A stretch of DNA of 64,000 bases, from the NCBI RefSeq assembly GCF_041248615.1, contig NZ_CP158426.1; one strand, given 5' to 3'. The stretch comes from Escherichia coli. Lineage in GTDB: Bacteria > Pseudomonadota > Gammaproteobacteria > Enterobacterales > Enterobacteriaceae. The position numbers and the translations under genes are program-made. Positions 24,411-49,931 of this stretch are shown in pieces (positions within the stretch are counted from its first letter, which is position 1; each line of letters starts with the position of its first letter). The notes under the pieces are model-generated. The model was not told the DNA's origin. It saw only the letters and a list, made by a program, of their open reading frames with translations, and searched no databases.

Positions 24411-24806
24411 TTAATGTGAAAAATAAATATAGGTATCGCTACACGTCAGGCACTGAGTTGCAGGTTGATATTCAATAACACCATTTGCGCCATGCTGGCG
24501 AAGCCAGCTTGTTGCAGTAAAGAATGCTGTGCCTGATGGTGCAGCAACAACAATACGCGTCGAATGCGCAACTGCGTAAAATACGTCGGGGGTCCAAAGT
24601 GTCTCGTTAAACTGCGTTGAGTGAACGGACAATAACCACTTCCCATTAACGATTGGGGAAGGATTAATAACGGGGGTGTCATTCCATTGCGATAAATTGA
24701 TATTCACTGACTCGCCCGATTTATCCCATTCAACAGATACCGGTGGGGGTGGTGACGAACAGCCGGTAAGCACCATTAAAAATAACAGTATATTGATGGT
24801 TTTCAT
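24411..24806 (-). CDS. Lipoprotein, 131 aa
   Basis: Signal peptide with lipobox LTGCSS; start overlaps virB11 stop by 1 nt. Confidence 0.6.
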   Translation of the reverse strand: MKTINILLFLMVLTGCSSPPPPVSVEWDKSGESVNINLSQWNDTPVINPSPIVNGKWLLSVHSTQFNETLWTPDVFYAVAHSTRIVVAAPSGTAFFTATSWLRQHGANGVIEYQPATQCLTCSDTYIYFSH

Positions 24807-25849
24807 TATGCTTTCATCTCCTCGAAGAAGGCATTACGGTGCAGTGGCCGGAAATAGATATCATTCATTCGGCGCACGTTGCCGTCTAAATCAATACTGA
24901 CAATAACATCCAGACTGTCCAGCACTTTGCGTAACATAAACGTGTAGGGCAGCCGGGCGCATTGTGGGTTTTCATAACAGCGAGTAATAAAACCGTCTAC
25001 CGCTTCTATTGCTGAACCCGCATGCAGGGAAGTCATACTGCCTTCATGGCCGGAGCCGGTTATTTTGAGAAAATCCCAGGCTTCACCACCGCGCACTTCG
25101 GTTAACAATATACGGTCGGGGTTCATGCGATAATTCCAGCGCAGAAGACTGGCTGGCGTCACAATCGAGCCTTTTTCATCTGCTGATTCGGACGGATAGA
25201 AGAGGTGGACATAGTTTTTATGAACAAAAAAGGTGATTTCCGGATTATCTTCAATGGTCGTAATACGCAAATGGCGAGGAATAAAACCAATCAGCATCTT
25301 CATGTAGGTTGTTTTCCCGGTACCGGTTTCCCCGGCCACCGCGATAGTTTTACCGTACTCCACGCACTTCTCCATAAAGCGCGGGATATCTTTGGCGGTA
25401 TACAGGCTCAACAATTCCTGATCGTGCGTCTGGGTGGTTTCTGAGCCCGTCACCCTGTTATAAAAACCGGCGTCGATATAGCTCTGGTGGGGAATTTGTA
25501 CCTGTGACGGCTTTCGGATAGTAATGGAGACGGTGTTGCGCTCACAGGCCGGAGGGACAATAACCTGACAACGTTCACCGGATTCCAGCGTGGCTGACAG
25601 CCCCGGTTTGATATCTTCAATATTGTCGCAGTGATGCTTTGCCAGGCATCTGGCGAAGTTGTAGCACCCCTCATAATCCAGCGAAACACTGTGCAGCTCC
25701 CAGATACCATTAATTTTGGTAAATAGCTCGCCCGGGCGGTTGACGGCGATTTCTGTTAGTCCAGGATGAGCAATAAAATCGCCAAAAAATCGCTGTGTAT
25801 AGCGATCGAGAGAGATGTTTTTCATGTGATATCCTTGTATCGGATACAT
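24806..25849 (-). CDS. virB11: VirB11-family T4SS ATPase
   Basis: Walker A VAGETGTGKTT; size and position at end of virB operon. Confidence 0.9.
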   Translation of the reverse strand: MYPIQGYHMKNISLDRYTQRFFGDFIAHPGLTEIAVNRPGELFTKINGIWELHSVSLDYEGCYNFARCLAKHHCDNIEDIKPGLSATLESGERCQVIVPPACERNTVSITIRKPSQVQIPHQSYIDAGFYNRVTGSETTQTHDQELLSLYTAKDIPRFMEKCVEYGKTIAVAGETGTGKTTYMKMLIGFIPRHLRITTIEDNPEITFFVHKNYVHLFYPSESADEKGSIVTPASLLRWNYRMNPDRILLTEVRGGEAWDFLKITGSGHEGSMTSLHAGSAIEAVDGFITRCYENPQCARLPYTFMLRKVLDSLDVIVSIDLDGNVRRMNDIYFRPLHRNAFFEEMKA

Positions 25850-25862
25850 TTGTGGAGGGAGT

Positions 25863-26870
25863 ATGTCGAAGACGAAAGTACTGTTCGCTTATTGCCATGA
25901 ACTCGGGCGCTGTTTGTCCATTGATGAAGCGCGAATGGAATTTTTTTCCAGAAAGCCGGAAGAAAGGAAGCGGTTCACTTTTTCATGTAGCGATCGCAAC
26001 TGTGATGTCACCATTAGCGGTGTTAACTATCACGTCAAAGCTGAAGATGGTGAGAAATTCAAGGCTGCGCACTTCCGTTCACCTCATCCTCACAAGTTCG
26101 GATGTGAATGGCTCGAATTCACCGAGGATGCGGATCAGGACCGGCGTCCAGACGAGTCAGAGGCTGATTTCACAGAACGAAAAGCAAAGCAAAAGCTGAC
26201 GGACTATATCAACTGCTTTGACCCTTCAATAGATGATCCTGATGGCGAACCATCCGATCCCGTGAAGCTTGTTACGCCTGTTCACACAAGAAAAACTGTC
26301 GGGGATGATGATAAAACGGGTACAAATGAAGAGCCCCGCTGGAGTCGCTACACGCGAACCAACCAGCTTCAGCGACTTATCGACACATGGCAGGAAGCGA
26401 AAGAAACGCTGCCTCAGGATGAGTTCCGGGCGTTGAGACTCAGGATCATGCACCATGATCAGGTCTATCTACATGAATATATAACGCATATACAGCGTGG
26501 ATTGGCTAATCCGTATTCGGGCGTCATCTATGGTGGTGGGACCCTAATGCATCGGTATGGTCGGGGTTTTCTGATTAATTTCTTTGATAAACATGAGGGG
26601 AAGCCTGTTCGCCTGTATGTCAGTAAAGATCTGATGGCGAAAGGACGGTTTGGTCATTATATCGATGAGATTCTGGACACTAAAAACGTCAGATATTTCC
26701 GTATATTTTTACTCAATCCGGTTGTTTCCGAACGGGAAAACAGCACAGGAAAAAGCGTTATCAACCTTGAAATATCAAAGCTGCGTCAACTGGCTATTTA
26801 CTACGAACTGAACTCCAGCAGAGAAGATGAATCTTCATCGGTGGAGACGGAGGGGGAAAGTCCGGCGTAG
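25863..26870 (+). CDS. Hypothetical protein, 335 aa, Cys/His-rich N-terminus, antisense to T4SS operon
   Basis: Long ORF on opposite strand between virB11 and virB10; N-terminal Cys/His cluster (CHELGRC, CSDRNC, HPHKFGC); acidic C-terminus. Confidence 0.5.
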   Translation: MSKTKVLFAYCHELGRCLSIDEARMEFFSRKPEERKRFTFSCSDRNCDVTISGVNYHVKAEDGEKFKAAHFRSPHPHKFGCEWLEFTEDADQDRRPDESEADFTERKAKQKLTDYINCFDPSIDDPDGEPSDPVKLVTPVHTRKTVGDDDKTGTNEEPRWSRYTRTNQLQRLIDTWQEAKETLPQDEFRALRLRIMHHDQVYLHEYITHIQRGLANPYSGVIYGGGTLMHRYGRGFLINFFDKHEGKPVRLYVSKDLMAKGRFGHYIDEILDTKNVRYFRIFLLNPVVSERENSTGKSVINLEISKLRQLAIYYELNSSREDESSSVETEGESPA

Positions 26871-27187
26871 CGGGCTAATGTTGTCACAAGAATGAGTATA
26901 TCGGTGACGTCAGGCAGCGATATCTGCTTATGTGCCAGCCGGATATCGTCCGGGGAAAAAGGCGGTGCATCCAAAGGGCCTTCACTGATGGTGATACAGA
27001 ACGGTTGCTCTTCTCCTGAGTCAATACTGAGTTCTATCAATGCGCCCCCGGCACGATAGCATGTCATGACTATTCTTCTGATTCCGGTAAGGTGTGACAG
27101 TAAGTCGTTGACGACAGCGTTGCTGAAATCGTCCCTTACGATGACGTCTGTCGCCGTAACACCAAACAAAAACTTTCGATTACTCAC
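26801..27187 (-). CDS. Hypothetical protein, 128 aa, coupled to virB10
   Basis: Start overlaps virB10 stop by 8 nt; 3' end overlaps the convergent 335-aa ORF by 70 nt, so one of the two calls may be wrong. Confidence 0.35.
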   Translation of the reverse strand: MSNRKFLFGVTATDVIVRDDFSNAVVNDLLSHLTGIRRIVMTCYRAGGALIELSIDSGEEQPFCITISEGPLDAPPFSPDDIRLAHKQISLPDVTDILILVTTLARYAGLSPSVSTDEDSSSLLEFSS

Positions 27188-28430
27188 TCTTCATCCTCAG
27201 CGTGTAGATGCCTGAAAAATCAATATCCTGCCCTGTGACCAGGTTGATGATTTCACCCTGATTTTTGTAGAGCGTCGGTGGGATATTAATGCTGTTTTCC
27301 AGCGTGGTACGTGCCATATCCGCCATAGCCTGACGGCTGTTTTCTGTATAGTCGGTATTCCGATCTTTCTGACCGGCGCTGTTGGATGCCCATGCCCCAA
27401 TATCAGGGATCATACCGACCAGTAATGCACCTCCAAATCGCTCCCTGAAATGCGAGTCTATCCAGCCATCAACGCCAGCCTCGCCCAGTTCTCCGGCAGC
27501 ATTCGTATCGACCAGCGGAATATCAAGGAAAGGGGGCTGGCGGGTACGCAGTTTCGTGATGATGATGAATGCGCGTCCCTGTCCATGCGTCATTCCTGTT
27601 TCTGCACCAGTCTGGTACATCCCCGTGGCGGTGGTCCCTTTTTCTATCAGCTTTGTATTACCGCTGGCGCTCCAGATGTCTTCGGCGATCGTGCAGCGGA
27701 TTTTTCCAGCCCGATCTGAGACAAAACGGTAATCCAGTGAGCAGGGAATAGCGGTATTTTCCGGCACGTACAGATCGGGATTATAAGGAATTCGCCGGAC
27801 CGCTGTCGGGGACTGTTCCGGCTGTGGCGACGAGGTGTTTAGCGGCTGACCGGTATCAGAATATTGTGTCTCTGACGGCTGTCTGGCTGAGGATGCCTGC
27901 GTCATTTCCTGATACCGGGTCCGTACCGGATTTCGTACCGCTGAACCTGAACCCTCCCGGCGCACCAGAAAACGGGCTTTATCTAAGTCGGGCAGAGCCT
28001 CCGATCCGTTGGGTGTCGTACTACCAGGGTTGTTGTCCGCCGGTTCTGGTGTTTTCGCGTCGATATAGTGCGTACCCAGATCGGTACGCTGTCGAGAATC
28101 GGTCCGATCTGTCGGGGCCACAGTTTCCTGAGGCTTTTCTTTACCTGGCTGCCAAAGAAGATTGTGGTATATCCAGTTACCCCCCCACGCCAGTGCAATC
28201 AGGGCAACGGCAGCGAATGCCAGAAAAGCGGTGGCTTTCCCCTGCTGGCGCTTTTTCAGTTTATTGACAGCCGGCTGTATTGGATCGTTATTGTCATCAT
28301 CCTGCCAGGTGTGAAGCACAGCTTCACGCTTTGCGCGGGCCTCGCGCTCAAGCGCAGCAATATCATCATCCTTCTGTGTCGGACAGGACCTGGATTCATC
28401 TGGCACAGGATGCAGATGTTCGTCATTCAT
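27180..28430 (-). CDS. virB10: VirB10/TrbI-family T4SS protein
   Basis: N-terminal TM anchor, Pro-rich linker, conserved C-terminal domain; position in operon. Confidence 0.85.
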   Translation of the reverse strand: MNDEHLHPVPDESRSCPTQKDDDIAALEREARAKREAVLHTWQDDDNNDPIQPAVNKLKKRQQGKATAFLAFAAVALIALAWGGNWIYHNLLWQPGKEKPQETVAPTDRTDSRQRTDLGTHYIDAKTPEPADNNPGSTTPNGSEALPDLDKARFLVRREGSGSAVRNPVRTRYQEMTQASSARQPSETQYSDTGQPLNTSSPQPEQSPTAVRRIPYNPDLYVPENTAIPCSLDYRFVSDRAGKIRCTIAEDIWSASGNTKLIEKGTTATGMYQTGAETGMTHGQGRAFIIITKLRTRQPPFLDIPLVDTNAAGELGEAGVDGWIDSHFRERFGGALLVGMIPDIGAWASNSAGQKDRNTDYTENSRQAMADMARTTLENSINIPPTLYKNQGEIINLVTGQDIDFSGIYTLRMKSE

Positions 28431-28449
28431 GTGTACAGTTCCTCAGCTG

Positions 28450-29349
28450 TTAATTGGTTGCGGTTTTTACCACTCGCTCAACTTGCGGGGAGACTGTGGC
28501 ACCATCTGCGACCTGAACCCTGCCGAAACCACGATTTTCCAGGCCGACCACAGCGCCACCGGAACGGAGGACCAGACGGGGGGTAACTTCCTGAATAACC
28601 AGTACGGTGAAGTTGCCTTTCCTGCGGACACTGCTGTTAACCACATGCTCCTGGCCGTTTAGCTCTTTTGTCAAAGAGGGAATGGATTTGGCTGGGGAGA
28701 AGCCCACGAACGTAAAGCGACCATCGTCATAGGCGAAGTCCGGAACGATACGTGTGCTATTGCTCCCCGGATATTTGAGATAGTCCCAGTTTCGTGGCGT
28801 CTGCGCGGCGTTAAGAGCCTGCTGGATATCGGCCTGCTGTTGTTTCTGCTCCCGTTCCCGCGCTTTGGTTGTGACTTCACGGCCCGATTTTTCGTGTGCT
28901 TCATCGGGATAGCGATAACTCACCTGAAAAGCAGGCTGCTGCGATGATTTTTCATCGATGACGTTTAGCTCGACGTTATACAGCCGCCGAGTGGTAACGA
29001 TTAGCATGTTGGTATGCCAGTCGTGACTGTTGGGAGGAATGACCACCTGCGCTGTATTACCGTCCACTCCGGGGGCACCCTGAATCAGGGCTACCGGGCG
29101 GATACTGACCCGGTTTGCGTCTGTTGTGGCTTCCCATGCGTCCTCAAAACCTGGTTTAGCACTGATAACCGCTTCGTCATTGTCAAAGATGAGCGTGGTT
29201 ACGAAACCGGGTCGGGTATTGACGACAGTGACGTTAAACGGGTTATAGACAACCTGCTGGAGACGGGCGTCGTAGCGGCTTGCTTGTGGTATTGCAGCAC
29301 CCCAGGCTATACCGCACATCGCCAGTGCGAAAAGGATGATAATTTTCAT
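28450..29349 (-). CDS. virB9: VirB9/TrbG-family T4SS protein
   Basis: Signal peptide; size and synteny; 1-nt overlap with virB8. Confidence 0.85.
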   Translation of the reverse strand: MKIIILFALAMCGIAWGAAIPQASRYDARLQQVVYNPFNVTVVNTRPGFVTTLIFDNDEAVISAKPGFEDAWEATTDANRVSIRPVALIQGAPGVDGNTAQVVIPPNSHDWHTNMLIVTTRRLYNVELNVIDEKSSQQPAFQVSYRYPDEAHEKSGREVTTKAREREQKQQQADIQQALNAAQTPRNWDYLKYPGSNSTRIVPDFAYDDGRFTFVGFSPAKSIPSLTKELNGQEHVVNSSVRRKGNFTVLVIQEVTPRLVLRSGGAVVGLENRGFGRVQVADGATVSPQVERVVKTATN

Positions 29350-32284: not shown

Positions 32285-35029
32285 TCAGAGTGCCTGAGCC
32301 AGGTAAGTATCCAGCCATTCATGGGGCTGCATTCCTTCCCGGTAGAGAGAGTCGAAGATTTCCAGGTTGTCGGCGCTGCCGCTCATGACTTTTGTGTACC
32401 TGCCGATCCCGGAAAGATCGAGCGTCACACGTGCAGCAAAACGCTTTATGTCGCCACGTCTAAATTGATTTTTTACCACTACGTACTGACGGGCCTGAGG
32501 ATCCAGGGCTTTCACGACGTCGAACACTTCCGGCTCAAACTTCATTCCGTCGACATAGTGTTCCCTGTCAGCACTGGGGTTGGCTGCCAGGATCTGCGTG
32601 CCGCACTGCTCAATCACGGCAGGCGCAATTTCATCCCTGATGATCTCCGCCGGGGACTGTGTTCCAACAACCAGCATCCCGTTTAGCTTGCGGATAGTTT
32701 TCAGTCGGTTATAGGCGAAATCCTTAAAAACCGGATCCCGTAGCCATTTCCAGAACTCATCCATGAAGATAACCAGTCGACGTCCGTCGAGTAGGCTGGT
32801 AATGCGGTACAGCAGATAAAAGGAGATCGGTGCGCAGATATTCGTATCGTCAAGAAACTCTGTGCCGTCAATGCCAAAGTTATCGCAGCGACTGATATCG
32901 AAGGTGTCTGATGCGTTATCAAACACCCAGCCAAACTCGCCACCCTGCGCCCACTGTGACAGGCGAATACTCAGGCCATTCTCCTGGGCTTCTCGGGTCG
33001 CAGGCTCCGGAAGATTCTCCAGTAAACGGGTGATCCCATGAATACGGTACTGTGGTTCATTACCGATCACCGCCAGTATGGCATCATTTAGACGTCGTTC
33101 ATTGCGGGGCGTGATGGTCGCACCGTTACGCGTACACAGCAGTTTCATCAGCTGACTGATAAAACTGATATTGCGTTTCGTGGGCGATAGCGAAAATGGG
33201 TTCCACCCGGTGGGCTCTCCATGTGTAATACGGTAATAACGGCCTTGCAATGCCCGGATATTCATTTCAGCGCCACGATCCTTATCCAGATAAACGGTTG
33301 TCAGTCGTTTGGTTTTTGCGTCGGGAGAAAAACTCTCCGTACGGCTATATTTCTGCTGCATGTTTTCCAGAAACGTCATGAGCATGGTTTTACCCGAACC
33401 GTTGGTACCGAGAATGCAGGTACTGGCTGGATTCTTCTCGTTGAATTCATCCTTATCCGCCAGCGTATTGTGAAGGTTCAGATAGTATCCATCCCCTGAT
33501 GGGGCACGCAGTAAGGCCATCGCATCCCCCCAGGGCGCATTATCGCGCTTGCCGGGATAGAAATTGTGTAGCGAAGCCAGCTCGACAAAATTCTGACTGC
33601 TCAGCTCACCCTTGCGGGGCCGCAAATGATAATTGCCAGGCAGTTGCGCCATATACCCGGCTGAAAGAGAAAGCGCGGCGGGAACCGATATAATGCCGAG
33701 GTTGTTCAGGGCATTGCTGATTTCGCTGGTATCGGCTACCAGACTATCCAGCGTCTGGGAAAACACCATGATGGAAAAATGGTGTTTTCCATACGCAATT
33801 TTTCCCGATGTCAGCAGGTCAAGCGCCACATCCAGATCCAGCCGCTGAGACACCGCATCATCATCTGAACTCATTAACAGACGTCGGGTGCGTTTGATGG
33901 CCTTCCGGGCTTCTTCCCGTGACATGCAGGTGTAGGACTGTGTGATGACATAATCACAGGGGGCATAAAGCAGAGAATCCATCATTCCAGTTGCTGTTTC
34001 TTCAGGGAACTCTTTAACTTCCAGACCCCGGAAATACTGGGTGCCGCCGGTATGGTTTATCTGTCCAGACTCCCCGGAGAAAAACAGCGCCGCCGATCCC
34101 ATGACGGAATATGCAGGAGCACGGGTGACGCGGATCCTGCGCCATTGGTGCGTCAAGAGATACTCGTAAAAGGATAACTGGGAGGAGAATACCGCCTGTT
34201 CTTCGCTGAAAGTACCAAGAGAGTGTGCGGCGTAGCGTGACAGAGCGGTATCGAGGGTACCTTTAATTTCCAGCATCCCCTGCAACACACCGTCAAGCTC
34301 TTTCAGTTTCTGGCCGTCTTTCATACGCCGGTGTCCGGCTTTTTCCAGACTGGCAAAAGGGCGGTAGCAGGCAGTCAGGAACAAGCGGTTACGGCGAAAC
34401 GGGTTAGCCTCCAGCGAGGCATAATACAGACGGCTGACTTCATCAGCGTAAGGGTTGCCGGATACCTTATGTAGCGAATCGGTAAATGGCTCCCTTACGT
34501 TATGGATATAGAAGGTGACCGGCATCCCCTCGAAAGAGCGGATAATTCCGTGCAACTGGTTACGGTCAATATTGAGCGTTTCTTCTGATTCACAATCGAA
34601 CGGAGTGCCCGTCAGTTCCCAGGTACAGTAGAGGTCACTATTGGGTGAGCGGACGACATGTTGATGAATATGCGATGAATACGGAATGTATTTCCTGAGC
34701 GTGGCACTCTGATTCAATTTCATGACGTTGAGAAACTCCGTGATATCAACAGCATCATGCTCAATGGGCATAAATGCTGTTGCGCCAAATAGACGGTTTG
34801 CCGCAGGTTTTCCTCTTGCCCTGAGCCAGACGGCTATCAGGCTGAACCGCATGGGTTCATTCTTGGTAAGCGATTTCATCAGCAGAAATTCAATCGGGAG
34901 TAGGGCGAGGAAAGCGACGGAGGTCCAGACAGCAATGATGATGGTGATACCCGTGACAGCCAGTAGAGGCACCATCGGCACTCCCCATAGTGCCGCCGGA
35001 CGTCTCATTGCCTTAAGCAGCTTTGCCAT
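32285..35029 (-). CDS. virB4: VirB3-VirB4 fusion T4SS ATPase
   Basis: 914 aa; N-terminal TM VirB3-like segment; large ATPase body; synteny. Confidence 0.9.
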   Translation of the reverse strand: MAKLLKAMRRPAALWGVPMVPLLAVTGITIIIAVWTSVAFLALLPIEFLLMKSLTKNEPMRFSLIAVWLRARGKPAANRLFGATAFMPIEHDAVDITEFLNVMKLNQSATLRKYIPYSSHIHQHVVRSPNSDLYCTWELTGTPFDCESEETLNIDRNQLHGIIRSFEGMPVTFYIHNVREPFTDSLHKVSGNPYADEVSRLYYASLEANPFRRNRLFLTACYRPFASLEKAGHRRMKDGQKLKELDGVLQGMLEIKGTLDTALSRYAAHSLGTFSEEQAVFSSQLSFYEYLLTHQWRRIRVTRAPAYSVMGSAALFFSGESGQINHTGGTQYFRGLEVKEFPEETATGMMDSLLYAPCDYVITQSYTCMSREEARKAIKRTRRLLMSSDDDAVSQRLDLDVALDLLTSGKIAYGKHHFSIMVFSQTLDSLVADTSEISNALNNLGIISVPAALSLSAGYMAQLPGNYHLRPRKGELSSQNFVELASLHNFYPGKRDNAPWGDAMALLRAPSGDGYYLNLHNTLADKDEFNEKNPASTCILGTNGSGKTMLMTFLENMQQKYSRTESFSPDAKTKRLTTVYLDKDRGAEMNIRALQGRYYRITHGEPTGWNPFSLSPTKRNISFISQLMKLLCTRNGATITPRNERRLNDAILAVIGNEPQYRIHGITRLLENLPEPATREAQENGLSIRLSQWAQGGEFGWVFDNASDTFDISRCDNFGIDGTEFLDDTNICAPISFYLLYRITSLLDGRRLVIFMDEFWKWLRDPVFKDFAYNRLKTIRKLNGMLVVGTQSPAEIIRDEIAPAVIEQCGTQILAANPSADREHYVDGMKFEPEVFDVVKALDPQARQYVVVKNQFRRGDIKRFAARVTLDLSGIGRYTKVMSGSADNLEIFDSLYREGMQPHEWLDTYLAQAL

Positions 35030-35039
35030 AGATAACCTC

Positions 35040-35333
35040 TCAGCTCATCAGCAGTGCGCCGATTTCACTGCCTCCACCAATCAGGATGCCGCCAATGATG
35101 ATGTAGGCGCACTGGGACAGGCTTTCGCCTTTCCAGAGTGTCTTGTAACCTACCCAGATCACGGCCACGGTAATGGTGATGGCCGCCAGGCCATTAAGGC
35201 CGGTGGCGACTTTTTCCATCACGGTATTTGCGCGTTGAAAGCCATCGGCAAAAACCGGAGGTACAGAACAAACGATGAGTGCAAATGCGGAAACATGACT
35301 GAAAGCGGCCTTAAGTTTGCAGCAAAGTGTCAT
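35040..35333 (-). CDS. virB2: VirB2-family pilin
   Basis: 97 aa with two hydrophobic segments; position after virB1. Confidence 0.7.
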   Translation of the reverse strand: MTLCCKLKAAFSHVSAFALIVCSVPPVFADGFQRANTVMEKVATGLNGLAAITITVAVIWVGYKTLWKGESLSQCAYIIIGGILIGGGSEIGALLMS

Positions 35334-36088
35334 TATTCTTTCTCCTCACGGGGTGACAGGGAGAGGCTCCGGCGCAATGACGGCGTAGAGATCTTTTCTA
35401 TGGCAATTTTCTTCTGGCGGAATTTTGAGGGGACGCCACGAACCACGCCCTTCGGCCAGATCACGCAGGGACGTAACTGGTCACCTGCAGGCGTAGGCTT
35501 CAGGAACGGCGGGGGTGTCAATTTATCCTCGTGGGTTCCGGGTACGGCATAGTGGGGAGCAGCAGCGTAACCGATTCGTTGCACATAGCTGGTTCCGGAA
35601 AAAGCCGCTTCCGGCTGTTCTCCGGTACGGAAATTGCCGGAGTAGTAGCAACTCAGTGCTCTTTTCAGCGAGCCGCCGCGTCGGTAACAGTCGTTGAGGA
35701 TGTGTTCGAAAACAGACAAATTGGTACAGGGATCAAGCAGCTCAGAGGCTGTCACACCGTAATGATGGAAATTGGTGCTGGTAATTTGCATCAGCCCCAC
35801 AGAATAACGGCGGCTCTGCGCCATAAGGCGACCTATGATTCGCTCGGCTCTTTCCCGGCTGGTGGGCTGATGAGAAATGATTTTATTGTGACCGAAGGTG
35901 CCTGAGCCCTTTGGGATAATTTCGGCGATCGCATAAGGGTTAAAATTGGACTCCACCCTTACGACGTCGAGTGCTGTGGACGGATGAATGCTGGTGGCAC
36001 ACTGCATGGCCACCGCCAGAAAGGCAGATGTGGAAAGCATAGTAGCCTCGGGAATGCGGGCAGCGTACATAGCCAAAGAACCATGCAT
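35333..36088 (-). CDS. virB1: VirB1-family lytic transglycosylase (SLT domain)
   Basis: SLT motifs VESNFNPYA and GLMQIT; first gene of operon; exact start uncertain. Confidence 0.8.
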   Translation of the reverse strand: MHGSLAMYAARIPEATMLSTSAFLAVAMQCATSIHPSTALDVVRVESNFNPYAIAEIIPKGSGTFGHNKIISHQPTSRERAERIIGRLMAQSRRYSVGLMQITSTNFHHYGVTASELLDPCTNLSVFEHILNDCYRRGGSLKRALSCYYSGNFRTGEQPEAAFSGTSYVQRIGYAAAPHYAVPGTHEDKLTPPPFLKPTPAGDQLRPCVIWPKGVVRGVPSKFRQKKIAIEKISTPSLRRSLSLSPREEKE

Positions 36089-48422: not shown

Positions 48423-49694
48423 CTAGCCAGCTTGAAGCGTCGTTTTTCCTCTCCCCAGTATGTAGGGCGGTACATAGGATTTGCGGCAAGTATCCAGATA
48501 ATCCGACCACCACTGCATCATTGCCTTTCTTGCTTCCAGATGCTCTGCTCTGTGAATATATGCCTGGCGTACGGAGTTACGTTCCTGGTGGCTCATTTGC
48601 CGTTCAACAGCATCCTGTGACCATATACTGGATTCCATAAGGGCACTGCATGCCATTGTCCTGAAACCGTGACCACAGATTTCCATTTTCGTATCCCAGC
48701 CCATCAGGCGTAGCGCCTTGTTCACCGTATTTTCACACATGGGTTTATACGGATTATGGTCCCCGGGGAACACGAGTGCATTATCTCCTGAGATATCCTT
48801 AATCTTTTTCAAGATCGCGATCGACTGTTGTGAGAGGGGTACGATATGAGGCCTGCGCATTTTGGCACCACGACCAGAGTAACGCACGCCTTCAATAGCT
48901 TCGCGCGTGGCGGGTATTGTCCAGACCTGGTTTCCGAAATCAATTTCATGCCAGCGGGCAAAACGCAATTCACTCGAGCGAATGAACAGATGCAGTGTTA
49001 GCAGGATGGCAAGGCGAGTGAGTTCACGGCACTGCTGAAAACTCTCAATGCTCTCAAGCAGTTCTGGAAGACGCTCCAGTGGTAGAGCGGGGTAGTGTCG
49101 TTTTACTGGTGGAGCCGTCACTCCGTCAAGGTTTGCTGCCGGATTAAAATCGATTAATCCATGATGCACGGCGTAGCGCATGATATTCCGGAGGTGCTGG
49201 CGTGTACGGGATGCAACTTCCAGGAGACCCTTTTCCTCAATTCCTTTTAATAAAGTGATGAAATGGCGGGGTTTCAGTTCTGAAACTGACATGGTGCCAA
49301 TGACTGGGAAGATATGATTATTCATGCTGGCGAGCAAACGGTCGGCGGTGTTCTCTGACCATTTTTTATTGCTCTTGTGCCATGCAAGTGCAACGTTTCT
49401 AAACACTTTCTTTGGCATGCGAGAACTGCGTTCGGCTGCTCGCTGCTCTGCTGGATTGATGTTCAGTACCAGCATTTTGCGAATACCTTCACGTTGACTA
49501 CGGGCGTCTGAGAGGGAGATGACTGGGTAGGCACCGAGTGCAATACGTGATTCTTTACCCTTAATACGGTACTTGAGATACCAGTGACGTGAACCGCCAG
49601 GTTTGACCAAGAGATACAGACCGTGGGAATCGGAAACTTTAAAGGGTTTATCAGATGGTTTGAGACTGCGGATTTTGGTGTCGGTAAGAGACAT
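48423..49694 (-). CDS. int: P4-type tyrosine integrase (tRNA-adjacent)
   Basis: 423 aa; N-terminal arm-binding-like region, C-terminal catalytic domain; 161 nt from tRNA-Asn 3' end. Confidence 0.9.
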   Translation of the reverse strand: MSLTDTKIRSLKPSDKPFKVSDSHGLYLLVKPGGSRHWYLKYRIKGKESRIALGAYPVISLSDARSQREGIRKMLVLNINPAEQRAAERSSRMPKKVFRNVALAWHKSNKKWSENTADRLLASMNNHIFPVIGTMSVSELKPRHFITLLKGIEEKGLLEVASRTRQHLRNIMRYAVHHGLIDFNPAANLDGVTAPPVKRHYPALPLERLPELLESIESFQQCRELTRLAILLTLHLFIRSSELRFARWHEIDFGNQVWTIPATREAIEGVRYSGRGAKMRRPHIVPLSQQSIAILKKIKDISGDNALVFPGDHNPYKPMCENTVNKALRLMGWDTKMEICGHGFRTMACSALMESSIWSQDAVERQMSHQERNSVRQAYIHRAEHLEARKAMMQWWSDYLDTCRKSYVPPYILGRGKTTLQAG

Positions 49695-49855: not shown

Positions 49856-49931
49856 TGGCTCCTCTGACTGGACTCGAACCAGTGACATACGGATTAACAG
49901 TCCGCCGTTCTACCGACTGAACTACAGAGGA
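49856..49931 (-). tRNA. asnT: tRNA-Asn (anticodon GUU)
   Basis: Reverse complement reads TCCTCTGTAGTTCAGTCGGTAGAACGGCGGACTGTTAATCCGTATGTCACTGGTTCGAGTCCAGTCAGAGGAGCCA; matches recalled E. coli tRNA-Asn; next to mtfA as at the E. coli asnT locus. Confidence 0.95.

Follow-up and report, generated by a model that had tools for sequence, protein, structure and literature searches.

An unrecognised, widespread pair of convergent, overlapping genes inserted between virB10 and virB11 of a type IV secretion operon in Escherichia coli

The 64,000-nucleotide stretch of Escherichia coli DNA analysed here (contig NZ_CP158426.1 of assembly GCF_041248615.1; hereafter the window) carries an integrative and conjugative element (ICE), in whose minus-strand virB operon for a type IV secretion system (T4SS) two convergent, overlapping genes, designated A and B, are lodged between virB10 and virB11. 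As judged by comparison with related operons and with homologues of both products, the A-B pair is an unrecognised, widespread two-gene module and a long-retained insertion in the T4SS operon. As to its role, a tentative reading, which we place somewhat short of probable, is that the pair constitutes a nucleic-acid-binding conflict module carried as cargo, with reciprocal expression of A and B. An earlier note on this DNA had drawn attention to a plus-strand open reading frame (ORF) of 335 aa within the minus-strand operon and to its 70-nt convergent overlap with a minus-strand ORF of 128 aa, both of which are borne out by the ORF listing and, for the setting between virB11 and virB10, by family matches. 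The features of the locus are as follows.

25863..26870, plus strand: gene A, antisense to the virB operon, predicted to encode a protein with a zinc module and an oligonucleotide/oligosaccharide-binding (OB) fold, of an unnamed family
26801..27187, minus strand: gene B, in sense with the virB operon, predicted to encode a small acidic alpha/beta protein, conserved partner of A
26801..26870, both strands: A/B overlap, 70 nt
27180..28430, minus strand: virB10, 416 aa, upstream of the cassette in the direction of the operon (NF041422, E 4e-170, and RefSeq annotation)
24806..25825, minus strand: virB11, downstream of the cassette in the direction of the operon (TIGR02788, E 7e-88)
27180..27187, minus strand: translational-coupling junction, where the end of virB10 overlaps the beginning of B (AAG AGT GAG TAA / GTG AGT)
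25826..25862, no strand assigned: divergent spacer of 37 nt between the virB11 and A starts, with the ribosome-binding site of A and a new one for virB11 (AAGGAtatcacATG, minus strand)
25826..27187, no strand assigned: the inserted cassette, ~1.36 kb, bounded by the start codon of B and a point just past that of virB11

Gene A begins with ATG behind a GGAGGG ribosome-binding site, while B begins with GTG and overlaps the stop of virB10 by 8 nt; within the 3'-3' overlap of A and B the third codon positions are common to both frames. The nature of the interval becomes apparent from two operons about 77% identical to that of the window, carried by an E. coli ICE (L004; loci compared are cited by our own labels) and a Klebsiella plasmid (L006), in which virB10 and virB11 overlap by 11 nt with nothing between them, and from a third operon (L005, 84% identical), which has A and B at the same position. 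In the uninserted junction (...AGG TTG AAA AAT GAC CGC TAA) the ATG of virB11 is embedded (ATG ACC), and in the window junction (...AGG ATG AAG AGT GAG TAA) the GTG of B stands exactly at the position of that ATG. Homology to the uninserted operon ends at the B start and resumes at codon 2-3 of virB11 (AAR AAY ATY TCY CTC GAY CGC TAT), which in the window lies behind the new ribosome-binding site and start (AAGGATATCAC ATG AAA AAC ATC TCT CTC GAT CGC TAT). Comparison of the junctions with those of L004, L006 and L005 thus shows a two-gene cassette of ~1.36 kb spliced exactly into the translational-coupling junction, with B having inherited the coupled start of virB11. Hence, the idea of an inserted cargo gene put forward in the earlier note holds with respect to the insertion but not to its extent, as A is accompanied by B; similarly, the proposed coupling of B to virB10 stands by the 8-nt overlap, but B is not an ordinary gene of the operon, being a cassette gene placed on the former coupled start of virB11. 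The virB11 start at 25825 is favoured by RefSeq and by alignment to uninserted VirB11 N-termini, and a longer virB11 ORF reaching up to 25849 lacks support from either. The 37-nt spacer is conserved in L005, in L017 and in L021, a remnant described below.

Base composition sets the cassette apart, with a GC content of 0.46-0.49 in the A/B interval vs 0.53-0.57 in virB10-virB9, and the AT and GC skews switch sign over A, as expected of a gene on the opposite strand. The cassette does not qualify as an insertion sequence or transposon, because terminal or flanking inverted repeats beyond chance were not found around the cassette and no transposase family in NCBIfam or Pfam matched within it. Neither are A and B core components of the VirB (MPF_T, mating-pair formation type T) apparatus, given that L004 and L006 do without the cassette and that NCBIfam yields no family for A or B, although the same search identifies VirB10 and VirB11 at E 1e-88 to 1e-170. 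The insertion is old, the same virB10-virB11 site being occupied in ICEs of nine genera, with elements from Citrobacter, Pectobacterium, Erwinia, Pantoea, Symbiopectobacterium, Winslowiella, Kosakonia and an unclassified enterobacterium. The same-site element furthest removed from that of the window, L024, has an A of 59% identity, a VirB10 of 61% and a VirB11 of 81%. As the figure for A is so close to that for VirB10, it indicates that A co-diverged with the operon. Among complete E. coli genomes the cassette is rare, being present in 8 vs ~347 with a related T4SS region. Searched by megablast, 72,556 plasmids contained no match to the interval, and relatives emerged only at the protein level. 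In Pantoea sp. Mb-10 (L021, 5880-6990), A stands alone behind an ICE-type upstream spacer, without virB11, virB10 or B, and adjoins mtfA (the tRNA-Asn neighbourhood), which looks like a decayed ICE remnant with A alone left intact.

By several comparative measures, A and B are both genuine genes under purifying selection. Homologues of A fall into 59 clusters in a word-indexed search and into 262 clusters at 50% identity in an exhaustive one, most of them being full length (305-335 aa), and those of B into 33 clusters, with conservation over all 128 residues, including 40 omitted by RefSeq. The dN/dS ratio against ICE orthologues is ~0.12 for A and ~0.25 for B. In the region belonging to A only, position 2 of the A codons is the least variable (19% variable sites), and in the region belonging to B only it is position 2 of the B codons (28%, vs 44% at B position 1), whereas third positions, which are common to both frames, are the most variable everywhere, reaching 79% in the overlap vs 26-35% at the other positions. 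The reservation of the earlier note that one of the two overlapping ORFs might be spurious is refuted by these data and can practically be dismissed, since A and B are open, full length and conserved below 30% identity across many genera, have dN/dS ratios well below 1 and vary at codon positions in the manner that fits their own frames, even though a long chance antisense ORF does exist in this operon. The latter has 276 aa (34722..35552, plus strand; antisense to virB3/4, virB2 and virB1), and stop codons disrupt it in four related operons (L004, L005, L006 and L044); by this comparison it is a chance ORF, and it served as the negative control for A. ORF length alone is therefore no proof that A is a gene.

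The reference annotation used was that of the E. coli NRZ14408 chromosome (NZ_LT599825.1), which is 100% identical to the window. It labels A as a hypothetical protein (WP_057067601.1) and gives B as 88 aa from an internal ATG (26801..27067, WP_239693076.1); entries of 88 aa are likewise common among database records of B homologues. Conservation of the N-terminal 40 residues, together with an ATG in L005 at the position equivalent to the B start at 27187, supports the 128-aa form with the GTG start as the probable B product.

The two genes are also conserved as a pair. Homologues of A at 26-39% identity, encoded on an F-type plasmid, metagenomic contigs and defence islands, have a small convergent ORF over their 3' end as well, and the partners of such distant homologues align with B, with Y44, R45, D93 and D96 invariant (YR..DxxD). 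The F-type partner is matched to B by hhalign with 97% probability, a profile built from all partners recovers each of them at E 1e-21 to 1e-50, and the L045 partner, absent from the profile build, scores E 6e-14. The overlap of A and B measures 13-73 nt and is 1 mod 3, which makes the wobble positions common to both frames, in 14 of 15 loci; among distinct overlap lengths this holds for seven of eight (P ~0.003 at a one-in-three chance, our calculation). The simplest reading is that the A frame extends into the 3' end of B and that the genes are kept tail-to-tail without room for a terminator, and a scan, in itself uninformative, predicts no terminator separating A from B and none on the operon strand. 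An Rfam search of 24500-28500 found nothing. By homology, the convergent A-B pair is thus shown to be an old, mobile unit in many Proteobacteria.

A few arrangements depart from this pattern. In Aliivibrio sp. S3MY1 (L028, 5522-5941, minus strand) a second, divergent B-like ORF scores E 6e-6 to the partner profile, so that B-like genes lie on both sides of A. In the protein P0091, from an 836-bp metagenome contig, residues 1-65 of B are fused to an antisense translation of the N-terminal region of A, in effect a natural deletion that removes most of A together with the B C-terminus; matches to a 'second B' antisense to the 5' end of A were an artefact of including this chimera in the first B profile. 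A lead from the 68-aa genes that precede B in L001 and L036 was rejected, these genes being unrelated.

Protein A itself has no family match in Pfam, NCBIfam, PADLOC or PHROGs, nor any Pfam match at E<=10; none of 87 homologues matches Pfam at E<=0.1, and sequence and profile searches of PDB sequences gave only a low-complexity match to eIF5. Its parts, as judged from alignment and an AlphaFold2 (AF2) model scored by the predicted local distance difference test (pLDDT), are as follows.

25863..26126, plus strand: N-terminal Cys/His module, residues 1-88, pLDDT 46-83, predicted zinc site
25986-25988 (C42), 26001-26003 (C47), 26091-26093 (H77) and 26103-26105 (C81), plus strand: codons of the presumed zinc ligands, singled out by their invariance
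26127..26357, plus strand: linker, residues 89-165, variable, largely disordered and acidic (20 D+E vs 13 K+R)
26358..26807, plus strand: helical lead-in and basic OB fold, residues 166-315, beta1-beta2-beta3-alpha-beta4-beta5

The description of A as Cys/His-rich is modest by count (of its 335 aa, 6 are Cys and 13 His, and the first 90 residues hold five of each), but C42, C47, H77 and C81 are invariant and C11 is nearly so in the 87 homologues, down to 21% identity. By this Cx4C...Hx3C motif residues 1-88 probably form a structural zinc site, in agreement with the zinc binding suggested earlier. The fuller motif F-x-C-x4-C ... HF-x ... H-x3-C may resemble the CoiA-type N-terminal zinc ribbon. 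The AF2 model has a mean pLDDT of 72.7 and is moderately confident in the N-terminal module; residues 127-166 are disordered (pLDDT ~30) and the linker is poorly conserved in the alignment. Residues ~170-315 reach pLDDT ~90, and their secondary structure follows the OB-fold order strand-strand-strand-helix-strand-strand. The tail (residues 316-335) is again disordered (pLDDT ~31; residues 319-335 in the model), variable, and short or absent in homologues without B. The predicted OB domain has an isoelectric point (pI) of 9.3 and is net positive in 94% of the 87 homologues, while linker and C-terminal tail are acidic in the window protein.

Assignment to the OB fold agrees both in topology and in similarity to solved structures, the best of which are the MCM10 internal domain (structural similarity 7.4 and 7.0), the TTC5 OB domain (6.5) and the AIM2 HIN domain (6.2), followed at lower values by RPA70, Pot1, SSB-like (single-stranded DNA-binding protein) and tRNA-synthetase anticodon-binding domains. 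The MCM10 internal domain, RPA70 and Pot1, OB-plus-zinc DNA binders of eukaryotes and archaea, resemble A by fold, with an identity of 4-18% and no sequence-profile match. T4 gp32 is likewise a DNA-binding protein with an OB fold and a zinc module. In MCM10 the zinc module directly follows the OB fold, whereas that of A is a separate N-terminal domain with a ~75-residue disordered linker before the OB fold. Membership in the SSB family was rejected for lack of a Pfam SSB match by A (E<=10) or the 87 homologues (E<=0.1). The 'ATPase' and 'Chromosome segregation ATPase' names given in UniProt are unsupported, with no Walker A motif ([AG]x4GK[ST]) and no Pfam domain, and are probably legacy annotations set off by the charged low-complexity linker. 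Among A homologues, the longer ones (400-464 aa) have low-complexity or frameshift extensions only and no informative domain fusion.

The earlier note had considered A possibly nuclease-like, and a zinc-dependent nuclease, as the lone cargo gene of the interval, might account for the conserved Cys/His motif in the N-terminal 90 residues; a small GIY-YIG gene following one solo A homologue also indicates that nuclease partners exist nearby. The suggestion is nevertheless very improbable and is abandoned here, since no nuclease fold, motif or profile (HNH or His-Me finger, others) was detected in A among Pfam, NCBIfam and PDB sequences, the invariant residues are the four presumed metal ligands only, conservation across the 87 homologues does not extend to N55 and H70, catalytic in appearance among close relatives, and the confidently modelled domain is the OB fold.

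Protein B has no family match in NCBIfam, Pfam, PADLOC or PHROGs. It is acidic (pI 4.4), and its net charge is negative in all 13 partners examined. Its model is weak (pLDDT 65.6), with a C-terminus that reaches pLDDT ~80-85 and is conserved. Fold matches, for example to enolase capping domains, are generic alpha/beta similarities of a low-confidence model and were set aside. The UniRef label 'Immunity protein 10' on the B homologue P0062 was discarded, as none of 22 B homologues, P0062 included, matches Pfam at E<=0.1.

Within conjugation clusters, the pair was found at six different junctions, and in all six B lies on the transfer-gene strand and A is antisense (P ~0.02-0.03 by coin flip).

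virB10|virB11: MPF_T ICEs
traF|orf99-trbB: F-type plasmids, from Providencia and from a metagenome
traI-orf68|traX: F-like plasmids of Serratia
After a VirB11/TadA-like ATPase: Aliivibrio
Inside the transfer cluster: plasmids of the pVA1 type in Vibrio
Upstream of topB...T4CP-mobC (T4CP, type IV coupling protein): Pantoea stewartii

The second of these settings recalls trbA and artA of the F plasmid, which like B and A are a small sense gene and a convergent gene on the anti-tra strand, without spacer, inside the transfer operon. The slot is alike as well: traF-B-A(antisense)-orf99-trbB in the Providencia and metagenomic F-type plasmids vs traF-trbA-artA(antisense)-traQ-trbB in F, the loci compared being those of the F plasmid NC_002483.1 (L042, 3858-4521) and a Providencia plasmid (L040, 5995-7310). 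Likeness is confined to position and orientation; homology of TrbA and ArtA to B and A was rejected (hhalign probability 0.2-0.4%; BLASTP E 6.3), and ArtA has 104 aa vs 311-335 aa for A. Insertion mutants of trbA and artA are said to have been without transfer defect (Kathir and Ippen-Ihler, 1991). The two genes co-occur and are confined to a subset of F-like plasmids (PMC5102898).

Away from conjugation genes, 11 contexts were examined, a sample and not a genome-wide statistic. In five of them PADLOC-recognised or annotated systems lie within ~7 kb, and in two more A directly follows a toxin-antitoxin (TA) pair.

L011: A homologue between Gabija, a three-gene Lamassu and Mokosh
L033: A homologue adjoining PDC-S21, in Tn7-like cargo
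L034: A homologue adjoining Upx
L045: A homologue adjoining SspB and PD-Lambda-2_B
L029 and L036: A homologues directly after VapBC and TacAT pairs
L043: A homologue beside BREX-1, with PDC-M14A-like and PDC-S57-like genes, without B

The neighbours of A homologues match the PADLOC models GajA, LmuABC, MkoA, Upx, SspB, PD-Lambda-2_B, PDC-S21 and others. Beside BREX-1, an A that is 70% identical and without B is found in 26 complete E. coli genomes. In one of the solo arrangements (L043, 8171-10316, E. coli 2014C-3338), A comes after a 90-aa CxxC...CxxC protein (PADLOC PDC-M14A-like, E 1e-8) and a glycine-zipper-tail protein, and is followed by a 97-aa GIY-YIG gene (PDC-S57-like). In Rahnella victoriana (L022, 5162-6966) the same arrangement of 90-aa protein, glycine-zipper protein and solo A recurs, the glycine-zipper-tail protein being one ORF of 180 aa there and two ORFs (70 and 75 aa) in L043. 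It may be that these solo arrangements constitute a separate system with the same A protein at its centre. No A homologue was found by tblastn in 50,697 phage records, and a literature search by accession, PADLOC candidate names and keywords found no description of the A-B pair.

Accessory genes between conjugation genes of an ICE are known from the hotspots of the SXT/R391 family. These hotspots reportedly hold BREX, restriction-modification and Abi systems and are several kb in size, situated in intergenic gaps. As in those elements, A and B leave the operon intact and their presence varies among syntenic elements; unlike them, they form an unrecognised pair of 1.36 kb situated in a translationally coupled junction and co-diverged with the operon. 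That SXT/R391 hotspots between transfer genes carry phage-defence cargo is outlined in a preprint (LeGault et al., bioRxiv 10.1101/2020.12.16.423150).

Taken as a nucleic-acid-binding conflict module, the pair would work through A as a non-enzymatic nucleic-acid binder, most plausibly of single-stranded DNA (ssDNA), by means of its predicted CCHC zinc module and basic OB fold, and through B as an acidic partner that would bind or antagonise A, and it would defend against, or exclude, phages or other mobile DNA. B would be made whenever the operon is translated, via the coupled start taken over from virB11. Transcription of the transfer operon would have to cross B in sense and A in antisense in order to reach virB11, the T4CP gene and mobC. 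Because the genes are not separated by a predicted terminator and A runs antisense to the transfer genes in every case, induction of transfer may be expected to raise B by read-through and to depress A by convergent transcription and antisense RNA. A would then be active in the quiescent element, to be silenced or neutralised for as long as that element produces its own single strand and exports it.

Several points weigh against this proposal. Neither A nor B matches any family of PADLOC-DB v2 at E<=1, a recognisable enzymatic effector domain was found in neither, and two A loci (L009 and L031) have no defence genes around them. Several A homologues lack B, so B is dispensable for tolerating A, and the A-B interaction is deduced from linkage and opposite charge only. 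The uniform orientation in six of six transfer clusters could also result from selection against polar effects. A scan of the window and three other contexts, itself uninformative, gave no consensus sigma-70 promoter for A. What speaks for the proposal is sequence, structural models and genomic context. In a Vibrio plasmid (L002, 5895-5923, minus strand), the spacer upstream of A has a promoter-like TTCACA-17-AATAAT (10/12) facing away from A, a hint that an outward promoter for the displaced downstream genes of the transfer strand may come from the cassette region.

A bolder version, which we regard as doubtful, would make the pair an immune or exclusion system, in which A is the sensor-effector that seizes incoming or replicating ssDNA and the overlap is an antisense switch, acting via B, for self-sparing. 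If so, the ssDNA of conjugative plasmids, ssDNA phages and replication intermediates would be the targets, and an element firing its own transfer operon would spare its own transferred strand.

A role in conjugation itself, akin to that of VirE2 and VirE1 of Agrobacterium, is an unlikely one. According to it, A would coat or protect the transferred strand in donor or recipient and B would act as acidic chaperone until A is needed. The basic OB fold of A with its acidic partner, the presence of the pair in six transfer clusters of both MPF_T and MPF_F types with B co-oriented, and the long-term retention at virB10-virB11 suit this view, and A/B, like VirE2/VirE1, would join a nucleic-acid binder (for A, by prediction) to a small acidic partner linked to a VirB-type system. 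Related T4SS operons, however, do without the pair (L004 and L006; it is found in 8 of ~347 E. coli genomes), and its absence from sister operons argues that it is not needed for conjugation. The virE1 and virE2 genes are co-directional and translationally coupled; unlike them, A and B are convergent, with A antisense to the operon, which speaks against co-expression, and many homologues lie far from any T4SS, in non-conjugative defence islands or as solo genes. There is no Pfam match to VirE2, any other VirE family or SSB. The C-terminus of A is acidic as well, whereas signals of VirB/D4 substrates are positively charged.

It is similarly improbable that the pair is an addiction module of the TA kind, stabilising the ICE or plasmid, with the antisense overlap tuning the ratio of the two products. 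Like type II TA systems and type I loci, A and B form a compact two-component unit on mobile elements; they adjoin VapBC and TacAT pairs in places, and their opposite charges and conserved 3' overlap fit the idea. Convergent loci overlapping at their 3' ends are known among type I systems (par of pAD1, txpA/RatA), where one partner is an RNA, and such overlapping transcription is a possible means of control for A and B too. Unlike type I and type II systems, however, both A and B are conserved proteins encoded convergently, and they are not co-transcribed as in type II systems, to which the pair is hence not assigned. Neither product matches a known toxin or antitoxin family. Intact, conserved solo A genes are common, in the 26 E. 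coli genomes and elsewhere, and because they are so frequent A is not a toxin that needs B. Solo B was not seen, which fits a variant in which B is the toxin and A the antidote, orphan antidotes being tolerated.

Finally, the pair might be a regulatory insert, in which transcription of A, or A acting as a repressor, throttles virB11, the T4CP gene and mobC, with B as anti-repressor; we consider this hardly likely. The constant antisense position of A inside transfer operons and the lack of a terminator in the cassette are in its favour, and an architecture of zinc module and OB fold would be compatible with DNA binding, but the pair is also found in defence islands with no operon to throttle, neither a helix-turn-helix nor any other regulator domain was recognised in A, and no conserved operator-like repeat was found.

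The host element, as annotated in the NRZ14408 record, is an ICE with an integrase, adjoining a tRNA-Asn gene, and its gene order is mobC, T4CP, trbM, cag12, virB11, [A, B], virB10 ... virB1. Mapped from that record, it extends in the window over ~5500-49931, with the integrase at ~48423..49694 and tRNA-Asn at ~49856..49931. Its other cargo consists of ArdC, a UbiD/UbiX decarboxylase pair, hchA, glycosyl-transferase and glycosyl-hydrolase genes, an IS3 copy and an integrase fragment. Beyond the adjacent tRNA-Ser lies a second, frameshifted integrase with phage-like genes.

The A family is large, with its 262 clusters, and has no model in Pfam, NCBIfam, PADLOC or PHROGs, while some public names of A and B homologues, such as 'ATPase' and 'Immunity protein 10', are misleading and B is mis-annotated (88 aa) in RefSeq records. 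With its defence neighbours, its occurrence in two unrelated types of T4SS, its fixed orientation and its conserved overlap phase, the cassette of 1.36 kb is a clonable candidate for a new defence or exclusion system, and it may serve as a model for convergent overlapping protein genes as a regulatory device in mobile elements. It also offers a positional counterpart to the long-unexplained trbA and artA of the F plasmid. The insertion shows that a tightly coupled T4SS operon can take in foreign genes at a translational-coupling junction and retain them for long.

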